Source: Escherichia coli
Lineage (GTDB): Bacteria > Pseudomonadota > Gammaproteobacteria > Enterobacterales > Enterobacteriaceae
Reading direction: 5' to 3' (one strand)
Assembly (NCBI RefSeq): GCF_003334785.1
Contig: NZ_QOWV01000011.1
Length of the DNA stretch: 64,000 nt
Shown: positions 13,120 to 43,067 of the stretch, piece by piece
Layout: every line of letters begins with the position of its first letter
How positions within the stretch are numbered: position 1 is the stretch's first letter
Notes under the pieces: generated by a model
Told to the model about the DNA's origin: nothing
The model's database searches: none
What the model saw: only the letters and a program-made list of their open reading frames with translations
Program-made: the position numbers and the translations under genes

Positions 13120-13896
13120 TTAGCGCCAGGCGTCAAACCAGCCAAGCCCTTCTTCGGTGAGGCCACGAGGTTTATATTCACAACCGATCCAGCCCTGATA
13201 TCCCACCTCATCGAACAGGCGGAACAGCCACGGATAGTTGATTTCTCCATCGTCCGGTTCATGTCGATCAGGTAGTCCGGCAATTTGTACGTGCGCATAT
13301 TTCCCGGCGTAGTCGCGGATTAAATGCGTCAGGTTGCCATCTACTTTTTGCGCATGAAAAGTATCTAGTTGAATAAACACGTTATCTCGCGCAACTTCTT
13401 CAACAATAGCCAGTGCCTGATACTGGCTGGAGAAGAGATAATGAGGCTTAACGCCGGGGCTGAGTGCTTCAACTAATATTCGCTTGCCGTGTGGCGCAAA
13501 GCGGTCGGCAGCGTAGCGGAGATTATCGATAAATACTGCCCGGTACCGTTCAGCATCTTCGCCAGCGGGCACGACGCCTGCCATCACATGGACTTGTTCA
13601 CAATTGAGCGCCAATGCATATTCCAGTGCCAGGTCGATGTCTGCGTGTGCTTCGTGCTCACGTCCGGGAAGGGCGGATAATCCCCATTCCCCCGCATTAA
13701 TATCTCCGGGAGCGGTATTGAACAGCGCCAGTGTCAGATGGTTTTGCTCCAGTTGCTTTTGGATTTGCAGGGTGGAGTAGTCATAGGGAAACAGAAATTC
13801 CACAGCATCGAACCCGGCTTTTCGCGCTGCGGCGAAGCGTTCAATAAAAGGCACTTCGGTGAACATCATGGATAAATTAGCTGCAAAACGAGGCAT
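13120..13896 (-). CDS. ygbM: Hydroxypyruvate-isomerase-like TIM-barrel enzyme (2-oxo-tetronate isomerase), 258 aa
   Basis: Xylose-isomerase-like TIM barrel family; product name from family membership (OtnI). Confidence 0.88.
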
Positions 13897-13900
13897 TGCA

Positions 13901-14539
13901 TTAACTCCTTAATTCCGCAATTTCACCTGCGGTCAGATAACGGATCGGGCGGTCACCGAGAATAAAAATCAGCTTTGCCGTTTCCTCCAGCTCTTCCATA
14001 TTGTTGGCGGCTTCTTGCAGGCTTTCACCGCAAACCACTGGGCCATGATTTGCCAGTAAAAAAGCCTGATTGTCTGCTGCCAGTTCCGCCAGATCCTGTG
14101 CGATGCGTTTATCGCCCGGTCGGTAATAAGGCACCAGCGGGACATTTCCCATCCGCATCACCACGTATGGTGTGAACGGACGAATAACGTTGCTGCTGTC
14201 CAGCCCTTGCAGGCAGGAAAGCGCCGTCGACCATGTGCTGTGCAAATGCACCACCGCTTTACAACGCGGATTGTTGCGATACAGCGCCAGATGAAAGAGC
14301 ACCTCTTTCGAGGGTTTGTCACCACTTAACCATTCGCCATCCGCGGCGACTTTGGAAAGCCGCTGCGGATCGAGATTGCCCAGGCATGAACCTGTCGGTG
14401 TCGCCAGTAAATTCCCGTCAGGTAAAAGCAGCGACAGATTGCCAGCCGAACCGGTTGCATAGCCGCGCTGAAAGAATGAACTGGCAATCCGCGTCATCTC
14501 CTCTCGCAAAGACTGCTCTACTTTTGCGAAATCGCTCAT
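13901..14539 (-). CDS. ygbL: Class II aldolase/adducin-family enzyme (3-oxo-tetronate 4-phosphate decarboxylase), 212 aa
   Basis: Aldolase-II fold; OtnC-type. Confidence 0.88.
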
Positions 14540-15798
14540 GATAAAAACTCTCTTTGGGCTCGTGAAAAAAAGGCGTCATCACCGAAGTTGCCAGATTTAA
14601 GGGCGAGTGAGACAGGCTTATCCAGTGCGTTTACCCACGGCACGCCGGGGGAAATGGTTGGGCCAATATGAAACCCTTTTATTCCCAGGCTCTGTGTGAC
14701 TACGCCGGAGGTCTCACCGCCTGCGACAATAAAGCGTGTCACGCCTTCCGCTGCTAACCGCGCCGCTAGTTGAGAAAACAGTGTTTCTACTGCCTGACTG
14801 GCTTTTTGTGCACCGTATTGCTGTTGAATTGCTGCCAATGCGTCAGTGCTGGCGGTGGCAAAAACCAGTGGAGCAAGTACACTTTCCTGGCCCAGAACCC
14901 ACTCTGCCAGTTCGTGTGCATAAGCGGCCAGAGTTTCAATTGAGAGGCAGCGTGCCACATCAACTTCACGGGCTGGTGCAATTTGACGGTAATGTGCTAC
15001 CTGGCGGTTGGTCATTTGAGAGCATGAACCGGAGAGCACTACGCCGCGCCCAGCGAGCGGACGCCCTGCTTTGCGAGCCTGGTTACCGTTTTCTTGCGCC
15101 CACTGCCGGGCCAGGCCAATCGCCAGACCAGAACCGCCCGTTACCAGTGGGGCATCGCGCAAGGCTTCTCCCTGAATTTCCAGATGGTGTTCGGTCAGCG
15201 CATCAAGCACCGCGTAGCGGTAGCCCTCTTGCTGTAAGCGAGCCAGCTCTTGACGAACGGCATCCACACCTTGTTCGAAAACATGTGCCGAAACGACGCC
15301 GCAGCGCCCTGTGGATTGCGCTTCAACCAGACGGGGAAGATAGCTGTCGGTCATGGGATTTACCGGGTGATGGCGCATCCCGGATTCGGCCAGCAGTTGA
15401 TTCATTACGAACAAATACCCCTGATAAACCGTACGTCCGTTGACCGGCAGGGCCGGAGAGAAGACCGTAAACGGCGTGTCGAGAGCATCCATTAAGGCAT
15501 CGGTAACCGGGCCAATATTACCTTTCGCCGTACTGTCGAAAGTAGAGCAGTATTTGAAATAGATCTGTTTGCAACCTTGCTGTTGCAACCAGCTCAGAGC
15601 CGCCAGCGATTGCTGTGTGGCTTCAACCACTGGACAGGAGCGCGTTTTCAGGCTGATCACCAGTGCGTCGATTGCTTCCGGCATTTTACCTGTTGGAACA
15701 CCGTTAATTTGTACCGTTGGTAGACCGTTTTCCACCAGAAAACTGGCGATATCCGTCGCGCCGGTAAAATCATCGGCGATAACGCCAATCTTGATCAT
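14536..15798 (-). CDS. ygbK: DUF1537-family four-carbon acid-sugar kinase (3-oxo-tetronate kinase), 420 aa
   Basis: N-terminal MIKIGVIADDFTGATD motif typical of the family; 4-nt overlap with ygbL; OtnK-type. Confidence 0.88.
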   Translation of the reverse strand: MIKIGVIADDFTGATDIASFLVENGLPTVQINGVPTGKMPEAIDALVISLKTRSCPVVEATQQSLAALSWLQQQGCKQIYFKYCSTFDSTAKGNIGPVTDALMDALDTPFTVFSPALPVNGRTVYQGYLFVMNQLLAESGMRHHPVNPMTDSYLPRLVEAQSTGRCGVVSAHVFEQGVDAVRQELARLQQEGYRYAVLDALTEHHLEIQGEALRDAPLVTGGSGLAIGLARQWAQENGNQARKAGRPLAGRGVVLSGSCSQMTNRQVAHYRQIAPAREVDVARCLSIETLAAYAHELAEWVLGQESVLAPLVFATASTDALAAIQQQYGAQKASQAVETLFSQLAARLAAEGVTRFIVAGGETSGVVTQSLGIKGFHIGPTISPGVPWVNALDKPVSLALKSGNFGDDAFFSRAQREFLS

Positions 15799-16703
15799 GA
15801 TTTCGCTCCCGGTAGAGTGATGCCAGAGAAAATCTTGATAACTGCGCTATCGTCTTCTTTCCCGTAACCCGCGTTACTGGCGCTGGTGAACATATTCAAT
15901 GCTGTTGAGGCCAATGGCAGCGGGAAGTGCAGGGCTTTGGCTGTATCGGCAACCAGACCAAGATCCTTAACAAAAATATCGACGGCTGAATGCGGGGTGT
16001 AATCGCCATCCACCACATGACGCATCCGGTTTTCGAACATCCAGGAATTTCCGGCGGCATTGGTCACGACGTCATACATCACATCCAGCGGGATCCCCGC
16101 ACGGGCTGCAAGTGCCATCGCTTCGGCTCCGGCAGCAATATGTACGCCCGCTAACAACTGGTGAATAATTTTTACGGTCGAACCTAGTCCCGGTTCTGCA
16201 CCTATGCGATAAACTTTTCCGGCAACGGCTTCCAGCACGGGTGCCAGTCGTTCAAAGGCAATATCGCTACCGGAGGCCATGATAGTCATTTCACCGTTAG
16301 CGGCTTTTACTGCACCACCAGAAACTGGCGCATCCAGCATTTCCAGATCGAATCCAGCCAGAGCGGTAGCAATTTCTTGCGCATCAGCACTAGCGATAGT
16401 GGAAGAAACCATTACTGCCGTACCGGGTTTCAGATGTTGTGCAACGCCTGTTTCACCAAACAGCACCTGTTTAACCTGGGCCGCATTGACCACCAGCACC
16501 AGCAGTGCGTCCAGTTTTTCGGCAAACATCGCGGCGTTATCAGAAACCCCGCAAGCACCTGCCTCTTTCAACGTAGCGCAGGCATTGCTGTTCAGGTCTG
16601 CGCCCCAGGTAGAAAGACCTGCGCGGACACATGACAGTGCTGCTCCCATTCCCATTGACCCTAAGCCAACGATACCGACATGAAACTCAGATCCCGTTTT
16701 CAT
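15795..16703 (-). CDS. ygbJ: 3-hydroxyisobutyrate-dehydrogenase-family NAD-dependent dehydrogenase (L-threonate dehydrogenase), 302 aa
   Basis: Rossmann motif GIVGLGSMGMGAA; overlaps ygbK start; LtnD-type. Confidence 0.9.
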   Translation of the reverse strand: MKTGSEFHVGIVGLGSMGMGAALSCVRAGLSTWGADLNSNACATLKEAGACGVSDNAAMFAEKLDALLVLVVNAAQVKQVLFGETGVAQHLKPGTAVMVSSTIASADAQEIATALAGFDLEMLDAPVSGGAVKAANGEMTIMASGSDIAFERLAPVLEAVAGKVYRIGAEPGLGSTVKIIHQLLAGVHIAAGAEAMALAARAGIPLDVMYDVVTNAAGNSWMFENRMRHVVDGDYTPHSAVDIFVKDLGLVADTAKALHFPLPLASTALNMFTSASNAGYGKEDDSAVIKIFSGITLPGAKS

Positions 16704-16784
16704 CTGCTCTCCTTGTTAATTTAAGTGATATTTTGTTTGATATTGTGAATATAAGCGCTGGAAGATAACGATATGGTGATCTGA

Positions 16785-16821
16785 TTCACATAAATTAACA
16801 TTGTGTGTTATTTTATGTGAA
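16785..16821. promoter_or_regulatory. Perfect 10-bp inverted repeat TTCACATAAA-N17-TTTATGTGAA in the ygbJ/ygbI divergent intergenic region; candidate DeoR-type operator
   Basis: Read directly; a third related half-site TGTGAATATA lies at 16744-16753. Confidence 0.45.
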
Positions 16822-16898
16822 CTAAGCGTTAGTTGCGCCGCGCACGTTTCGCAGGCAAATAGCGTAGAATGTCAGCAGGACAAAGGAAGGAGCAAAAG

Positions 16899-17666
16899 TT
16901 GATACCCGTAGAGCGTCGCCAAATCATCCTTGAGATGGTAGCTGAAAAAGGCATTGTCAGTATTGCTGAACTAACGGACAGAATGAATGTGTCACATATG
17001 ACCATTCGTCGGGATTTACAAAAACTGGAGCAGCAGGGAGCCGTTGTGCTGGTGTCCGGAGGCGTCCAGTCTCCGGGACGCGTGGCGCATGAACCTTCTC
17101 ATCAGGTAAAAACTGCGCTGGCAATGACGCAAAAAGCGGCTATTGGCAAGCTGGCGGCAAGTCTTGTTCAGCCGGGAAGTTGTATCTATCTGGATGCGGG
17201 AACGACCACGTTAGCGATAGCACAGCATCTGATTCACATGGAGTCACTGACTGTGGTCACAAACGATTTCGTTATTGCGGACTACTTGCTCGACAACAGT
17301 AATTGCACAATTATTCACACTGGCGGTGCAGTGTGTCGGGAAAACCGTTCCTGTGTCGGGGAAGCCGCTGCGACCATGCTGCGCAGCCTGATGATTGATC
17401 AGGCTTTTATTTCTGCATCGTCATGGAGTGTGCGGGGGATTTCTACGCCAGCGGAAGATAAAGTCACGGTGAAACGGGCGATTGCCAGTGCCAGCCGCCA
17501 GCGAGTTTTGGTCTGTGATGCGACGAAATATGGTCAGGTGGCGACATGGCTGGCGTTACCATTAAGCGAGTTTGATCAGATTATTACAGACGACGGTTTG
17601 CCGGAGAGTGCCAGTCGCGCGCTGGTGAAGCAGGATCTCTCTTTGCTGGTAGCGAAAAATGAATAA
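16899..17666 (+). CDS. ygbI: DeoR-family transcriptional regulator, about 255 aa, probable TTG start
   Basis: HTH plus sugar-binding DeoR domain. TTG at 16899 has a strong GGAG Shine-Dalgarno 6 nt upstream; the ORF-track ATG at 16869 has none. Confidence 0.85.
   Translation: MIPVERRQIILEMVAEKGIVSIAELTDRMNVSHMTIRRDLQKLEQQGAVVLVSGGVQSPGRVAHEPSHQVKTALAMTQKAAIGKLAASLVQPGSCIYLDAGTTTLAIAQHLIHMESLTVVTNDFVIADYLLDNSNCTIIHTGGAVCRENRSCVGEAAATMLRSLMIDQAFISASSWSVRGISTPAEDKVTVKRAIASASRQRVLVCDATKYGQVATWLALPLSEFDQIITDDGLPESASRALVKQDLSLLVAKNE

Positions 17667-42984: not shown

Positions 42985-43067
<83 letters not shown>

Follow-up and report, generated by a model that had tools for sequence, protein, structure and literature searches.

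A candidate multi-site YgbI operator around the predicted CRP-dependent promoter of the ltnD-otnK-ygbLMN operon in Escherichia coli

An inverted repeat located in the divergent spacer between the ltnD (ygbJ) and ygbI genes of Escherichia coli is probably a part of a candidate multi-site operator of the repressor YgbI, arranged around the predicted CRP-dependent promoter of the L-threonate/tetronate operon (ltnD-otnK-ygbLMN). The unit repeated there is a 15-16 bp site composed of two TGTKAA-like hexamers 10 bp apart, and not a 10-bp half-site. From the sequence we infer that YgbI would be the protein reading this motif, and a DeoR-type multi-site operator, which has not been delineated here before, is a plausible candidate. 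Our result adds detail on a repressor and a target that were both known already, and brings no new mechanism. All positions given below are those of the window, i.e. of the whole 64-kb stretch of E. coli DNA which was analysed.

The spacer that is home to the repeat belongs to a region 98-100% identical in 4,588 complete E. coli genomes, and within the spacer K-12 differs by a single base, at 16771. According to RefSeq, ltnD, which encodes L-threonate dehydrogenase (15795-16703, minus strand), is the first gene of the repressed ltnD-otnK-ygbL-ygbM-ygbN cluster, whose five genes overlap or are closely spaced. On the plus strand, ygbI (16899-17666), named in RefSeq as 'DNA-binding transcriptional repressor YgbI', is translated from a TTG codon into a protein of 255 aa with HTH_DeoR and DeoRC domains, and the corresponding Pfam families PF08220 and PF00455 are found on its orthologues as well. 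The length of 195 bp that was originally given for the divergent region is confirmed, counting from the ltnD ATG (16703, minus strand) to the ygbI TTG (16899).

The original prediction also took TTG 16899 as the true ygbI start and placed the ATG at 16869 within promoter sequence, and both the published transcription start and RefSeq back it in this. Mendoza-Vargas et al. 2009 (PMC2760140) mapped the ygbI transcription start 21 nt 5' of the TTG, at about 16877/16878, with TAGAAT (16865-16870) as the -10 hexamer, and called the older ATG start wrong. The ATG at 16869 falls within this hexamer, the TTG is preceded by the Shine-Dalgarno sequence AAGGAAGGAG (16883-16892), and RefSeq and MG1655 annotations both start the gene at window position 16899. 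Orthologues of ygbI keep a TTG or GTG start together with a Shine-Dalgarno sequence, and AAATAGCGTAGAAT at the ygbI promoter is kept in close relatives. The TTG start is correct, yet it has been known since 2009 and stands in RefSeq.

Annotation of the same cluster in the RefSeq genome of strain 720632 deserves a separate remark. There (L001 2521-3940, about 13120-14539 of the window) ygbM is named 'HPr family phosphocarrier protein', which looks like a mis-annotation of tetronate isomerase, and ygbL is given as a pseudogene with an internal stop; the ygbM and ygbL reading frames of the window are intact (258 and 212 aa, respectively).

The perfect 10-bp inverted repeat with a 17-nt spacer which drew attention to this region is present exactly, as TTCACATAAA (16785-16794) and TTTATGTGAA (16812-16821). 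The pattern TTCACATAAA-N17-TTTATGTGAA occurs once in the window and in 0/100 dinucleotide-preserving shuffles with up to three mismatches allowed; the inverted repeat at 16785-16821 is not a product of chance. It takes rank 2 among the 12 listed close inverted repeats of the window. Another inverted repeat of the window, with 17-nt arms CGCCTTATCCGGCCTAC and GTAGGTCGGATAAGACG at 43002-43047, looks like a REP element. The full arms of the repeat in the spacer are 16 nt each, TTCACATAAATTAACA at 16785-16800 and TGTTATTTTATGTGAA at 16806-16821, complementary at 15 of 16 positions and separated by a gap of 5 nt.

A 15-nt motif, TGTTAWTTTWWGTGA, unites these arms with a third copy at 16714-16728 and a weaker one at 16734-16749. 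The best third copy, TGTTAATTTAAGTGA (16714-16728), has the orientation of the right arm; it was missed by the original prediction and came from the repeat finder. Four sites can be described accordingly. Site A (16714-16729, plus strand, TGTTAATTTAAGTGAT) is composed of hexamers TGTTAA and AGTGAT and abuts the ltnD Shine-Dalgarno sequence. Site D (16734-16749, plus strand, TGTTTGATATTGTGAA), with hexamers TGTTTG and TGTGAA, begins 20 bp past the start of site A and spans the predicted ltnD +1. The additional TGTGAA pointed out originally is indeed present, at 16744-16749, and is the fourth hexamer of this A/D array. Site B, the left arm (16785-16800), reads on the minus strand as TGTTAATTTATGTGAA, with TGTTAA and TGTGAA 10 bp apart, and site C, the right arm (16806-16821), reads on the plus strand as TGTTATTTTATGTGAA.

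We trained a position weight matrix (PWM) solely on sites A and B of 12 loci. It finds three matches of at least 12 bits in the window, which are sites A (23.3 bits), B (23.4 bits) and C (20.7 bits), the last of them scored by a matrix built without any site C and at a level reached by 0/5000 shuffles of the spacer; site D is a weak match of 8.5 bits. Across the fetched loci, the ygbI-upstream spacers (3.1 kb) hold 31 matches of at least 14 bits, and the remaining 55 kb contain 3; 24 of the 31 are the training sites themselves and 7 are independent. Upstream of ygbL, ygbM and ygbN the scan gave no extra matches in the cluster.

Orthologous spacers were gathered through homologues of the YgbI protein and then the contigs encoding them, and a contig scan with YgbI gave 4 loci. 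The ygbI-upstream spacers compared come from E. albertii, Entomohabitans, Salmonella, a Citrobacter, two further enterobacteria, Serratia, Yersinia, Pectobacterium, Dickeya, Pantoea, Erwinia and Brenneria, 14 genera overall, whose YgbI proteins are 60-96% identical to that of E. coli (96% in E. albertii, 87% in Salmonella). One retrieved contig, RKCM01000024.1 (L003, 'MAG: Oscillospiraceae bacterium', a Firmicute), codes for a YgbI with 100% identity to that of E. coli; mis-binning of, or contamination with, E. coli DNA is almost certainly the explanation.

The original prediction held that absence of the repeat from orthologous spacers would speak against an operator, and phylogenetic footprinting found the opposite for sites A, D and B, which are conserved in 14 genera. 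Their sequence, orientation and the distance of 72-73 bp between the starts of A and B are kept, whereas the sequence between them diverges. Every genus has both site A (TGTTAATTTWAGTGA), which adjoins the ltnD ribosome-binding site, and the oppositely oriented site B. Read by hexamer, the array is TGTTAA, AGTGAT, TGTTyt and TGTKAA at +0, +10, +20 and +30 in every genus, and site B is TGTTAA and TGTGAw on the opposite strand, also in every genus. The multiple alignment leaves invariant T-G-T at 16714-16716, G-T at 16725-16726, T-G-T-T at 16734-16737 and T-G-T at 16744-16746, which means one (T)GT per 10 bp; within site A the invariant bases are T14, G15, T16, A18, G25 and T26, and within site B TCACA (16786-16790) and T..AC (16796-16799). 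In site D, which overlaps the -10/+1 region of the promoter, TGTT (16734-16737) and TGT.A (16744-16748) are invariant in 13 genera. E. coli strains which diverge from the window by 1.5-1.7% carry substitutions at 16742, 16759, 16761, 16780 and 16791, none of which touches an invariant base; owing to the one at 16791, the 10-bp repeat is imperfect in those strains. Site C has a narrower distribution: at +19/+20 from site B it is found in 6 of the 14 genera only, those closest to Escherichia (the Escherichia-Salmonella clade).

At the ygbI side of the spacer the distant genera (L010-L014, L024) possess a B-like sequence, TCACAATWWTTATCA, directly after the ygbI -10 hexamer (GTAAAAT), in the last ~60 bp before ygbI. 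No such site follows the ygbI -10 in the Escherichia clade, which possesses site C in its stead, so autoregulation of ygbI seems to have been rewired between the two groups. In Yersinia pseudotuberculosis (L025 1860-1960) the ygbI orthologue has no adjacent otn/ltn genes, and an A-like TGTTAATTTTGGTGA stands there beside a CTCTCC remnant, with a B-like site directly after the gene's own TATAAT; this locus looks like a deletion remnant in which autoregulation would have been retained.

Site B also overlaps a CRP site (16772-16793, tatGGTGAtctgatTCACAtaa), whose half-sites occupy 16775-16779 and 16786-16790. The sequence GGTGA-tctgat-TCACA (16775-16790) matches TGTGA-N6-TCACA at 9 of 10 core bases, and its TCACA is common to site B. 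A 2026 Footprint-seq preprint (PMC12871828, Table 1) lists taTGTGAatcagaTCACCata for ygbI/ygbJ among its new CRP sites, the in vitro Kd being estimated at 8.4 nM, and we located this sequence in the window exactly at the CRP site. The GGTGA-N6-TCACA arrangement, with a variable N6, is kept in 8/14 genera. In one strain, E. coli KFu019 (NZ_CP091700.1, L020 1-2500), the ltnD-ygbI spacer is broken at the CRP site, near window position 16773, by an inserted, possibly Mu-like element with genes for a transposase-domain, a small HTH and a MerR-family protein, and the ltnD promoter is thereby cut off from ygbI and from sites B and C.

On the minus strand a single -10-like hexamer is well conserved, TATATT (16748-16753), a predicted ltnD -10 where TAnnnT is kept in 13/14 genera. 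With it the ltnD +1 would fall near 16741 and CRP would be centred (16782.5) at -41.5, in the class II geometry. In the genera where the A-to-B distance is 73 and not 72 bp, the -10 hexamer is one base further from hexamer D2, and the distance of 41.5 bp is thus kept. On this predicted map the hexamers of site D cover -8 to -3 and +2 to +7, those of site A +12 to +17 and +22 to +27, and sites B and C lie at -59 to -44 and -80 to -65, respectively.

That YgbI represses the neighbouring operon has been demonstrated by others. Gao et al. 2021 reported one YgbI ChIP-exo site, between ygbI and ygbJ, and found ygbJKLMN up by 4.0-5.6 log2 (about 15- to 47-fold) upon ygbI deletion, from 4.0 log2 for ygbN to 5.6 for ygbJ, the ~47-fold derepression of the latter being measured in aerobic glucose medium. 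The same deletion mutant grows on L-tartrate, and from a single site these authors could derive no motif. Mutations in ygbI were tied to overexpression of ygbI-ygbN by Sastry 2019 and Guzman 2019, and in RegulonDB the status of YgbI as a transcription factor comes from high-throughput data only. The literature on YgbI binding and regulation yielded neither an EMSA nor a footprint for YgbI at these positions. The original remark that no defined operator was known of here holds in the sense that neither the published ChIP-exo peak nor the derepression defines a motif.

The ChIP-exo interval deserves particular attention. It corresponds to 16821-16851 of the window, where it abuts the right arm and, being offset from the motif sites, overlaps only the last base of site C. 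Its published coordinates, 2859304-2859334, make sense in NC_000913.2 only, and they were brought to the window with the MG1655 annotation and an NC_000913.2 offset of +1978. It could be argued that the YgbI site is this interval itself, with its 6-bp palindrome AACTAAgcgTTAGTT at 16820-16834, and that the repeat is merely a CRP site plus AT-rich promoter sequence; such a reading would agree with the coordinates of the published peak, and we nevertheless find it unlikely. The helix-turn-helix of YgbI, V31-E44, is invariant or conservatively substituted (I/V at 36, L/V at 40) in 12 orthologues, therefore a conserved operator is to be expected, and therefore the poorly conserved 16821-16851 stretch is an unlikely specific site. 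It is not conserved even in E. albertii or Salmonella despite the invariant helix-turn-helix, for which reason we rejected the palindrome as the operator; the interval is devoid of any repeated motif, and a CRP site alone would leave sites A, D and C unexplained.

The arms might also serve mainly as core elements of two divergent sigma-70 promoters that overlap each other, with TTCACA-18-TATTTT facing ygbI and TTCACA-16-GTTAAT facing ltnD, and the symmetry would then be a by-product. Shimada pattern predictions within an RpoD-holoenzyme SELEX fragment do use the arms as -35 boxes, and the plus-strand match was recovered in our promoter scan too. We give this explanation a low probability, as the mapped ygbI transcription start uses TAGAAT about 60 bp downstream, GTTAAT and its Salmonella counterpart GTTATT have no A at position 2 of the -10, and it would leave unexplained both the identical motif in the leader at 16714 and the recurrence of TGT every 10 bp.

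Conservation does not separate YgbI from another conserved regulator reading TGTTA-type repeats, and ArcA-P would be the first to think of, with the operon under redox control. ArcA boxes are made up of TGTTA-like sequences in direct repeat, and a dicC promoter probe that looks like such a box enriched ArcA together with YgbI. The chances of this reading are nonetheless slim: ArcA repeats are 11 bp apart centre to centre as opposed to 10 bp here, where at +11 one meets GTGAA or GTGAT, the alternate hexamers are of the GTGA type, ygbI and ygbJ are not among the entries of the ArcA ChIP supplement tables examined, and loss of YgbI alone derepresses ygbJ ~47-fold under aerobic conditions.

We also looked for the motif at other promoters associated with YgbI. 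Pull-downs of YgbI by Reg-Seq mass spectrometry on idnK and leuABCD run against an assignment of the motif to YgbI, since it is absent from both, with a best score of 4.3 bits for idnK (-48 to -27) and below 0 for leuABCD (-18 to +1). At dicC, TGTTA elements are present, yet no match exceeds 6.3 bits, and the region of the dgcZ 'YgbI box' reaches 7.5 bits only, the published test of that box having been negative. In the MG1655 idnD-idnK spacer (L017 4460-4485), outside the Reg-Seq 'YgbI' interval, we observed TGTCATTATTTGTGAtgaagaTCACG, a YgbI-like match of 13.8 bits fused to a CRP-type site in the arrangement seen with site B and CRP at ltnD; we rejected it as a YgbI site, the match being mostly a CRP half-site.

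The two arms of the repeat evolve together. Arms B and C co-vary to form a perfect 16/16 palindrome in Salmonella (L007 1887-1922), and in L009 (1883-1916) both are TGTGAATATTTGTGA-like, while site A of these genomes does not follow the concerted change. Selection of the repeat for its folding in DNA or RNA (hairpin or cruciform), and not as a protein site, would agree with this concerted change and with a predicted DNA hairpin of -10.9 kcal/mol (z = -5.3), but it is very improbable, given that the repeat lies between the mapped ygbI and the predicted ltnD transcription starts and is probably untranscribed, that neither a T-run nor a terminator-like site follows it, that no Rfam match was obtained at E <= 1, and that the motif also occurs singly, as site A or as site B in genera without C, where a hairpin is impossible. 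Template-switch correction of quasi-palindromes is a possible cause of homogenisation of arms, and the behaviour of B and C suggests such a correction and not an altered binding specificity.

Taking all this together, we propose the following scheme for a multi-site YgbI operator. The recognised unit would be a TGTKAA-like hexamer with a period of 10 bp. Sites A and D, as four direct hexamers (16714, 16724, 16734 and 16744), would span the DNA from just past the -10 hexamer to the ribosome-binding site, while 72 bp upstream site B (16785-16800) would offer two reversed hexamers and have TCACA in common with the CRP site. Site C (16806-16821) would add two more in the Escherichia/Salmonella clade, turning site B into a 16-bp palindrome. 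Oligomers of YgbI on A/D may block RNA polymerase and promoter escape, and YgbI on B/C may compete with CRP at about -41.5. Binding to A/D and B/C would probably be cooperative, possibly by looping of the intervening 72 bp, and a ligand derived from the pathway may release YgbI through its DeoRC domain. The reported number of YgbI copies per cell, 2-6, is low for eight hexamers, and we counted this against a multi-site operator; cooperation or looping would, on the other hand, suit a very scarce repressor. The scheme in its full extent, an eight-hexamer phased operator at which RNA polymerase would be occluded, CRP displaced and a tight loop of ~72 bp formed, with arms kept alike by template-switch correction and not by selection for binding, is a tentative one and rather less likely than not.

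The five genes are close or overlapping, and the cluster has no further motif matches. A single promoter under YgbI control probably accounts also for the effects on ygbLM and ygbN of the kind classified by Gao et al. as 'indirect'. The original assignment of the repeat to YgbI can be upheld as to its locus, the DeoR-family repressor, the in-vivo peak in the spacer and the conserved motif, unique to the spacer within the window. It has to be amended in that the unit is 15-16 bp long, the core consists of A, D and B, the right arm is limited to one clade, the left arm doubles as a CRP half-site, and the ChIP-exo interval only abuts the repeat.

YgbI has been confirmed as a transcription factor only recently, with one known target region and no consensus. 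The finding is incremental and the regulation of a standard kind; still, a motif and a map of sites would enable operator mutants, reporter fusions and genome-wide prediction of sites, and would help to explain how a loss of ygbI function leads to growth on tartrate. The promoter itself would be a testable case of CRP versus a local repressor in the metabolism of ascorbate-derived four-carbon acids.

The arrangement proposed here has parallels in well-studied systems. Class II CRP promoters may carry a local repressor overlapping the CRP site, such as CytR with CRP at deoP2; here, likewise, 41.5 bp separate the CRP centre from the predicted +1, and the candidate repressor site has bases in common with the CRP site. 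GlpR, a tetrameric repressor, has 20-bp palindromes with half-sites ~10 bp apart in its glp operators. The candidate YgbI operator resembles them in the DeoR/GlpR family of the regulator and in phased 10-bp arrays of TGT half-sites over the -10/+1 of a promoter that is, here by prediction, CRP-activated, and it is unlike those palindromes in that the promoter-proximal hexamers all point in the same direction.

The deo operators O1, O2 and O3 of E. coli DeoR are 16-bp palindromes, TGTTAGAA.TTCTAACA, and repression there proceeds via multiple operators and DNA loops. Common to both cases are the HTH_DeoR and DeoRC family, a half-site starting with TGTTA and several operators, here candidates, round a sugar-catabolic promoter whose CRP dependence is here a prediction, and cooperative or looping repression is plausible here as well. 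Unlike the deo operators, the sites described here are asymmetric (TGTTAA and GTGAA, 10 bp apart) and form a direct array of four hexamers and an inverted pair, at distances of 20 and 72 bp as compared with hundreds of bp. For DeoR, the study of Brucella VdtR cites Amouyal et al. 1989.

For ArcA-P (PMC3798270), groups of 2-5 direct repeats of the TGTTA-like kind, spaced by roughly a turn of the helix, are described as overlapping promoters. The ltnD array resembles them in having such repeats over a promoter; it differs in the period (10 versus 11 bp), in the GTGA-type alternate hexamers and in the candidate regulator, a DeoR-family protein and not a response regulator. A further parallel is found in Brucella, where the DeoR-family VdtR represses a homologous ltnD-otnK erythronate/threonate cluster from several sites in its promoter; free L-threonate and D-erythronate fail to release it in vitro (PMC10580937). 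The two systems share the pathway, the family and a regulator gene within the cluster, whereas no motif was defined for VdtR (PMC10580937). Since VdtR does not respond to free threonate or erythronate, this analogy suggests that the effector of YgbI may be a downstream, probably phosphorylated intermediate.
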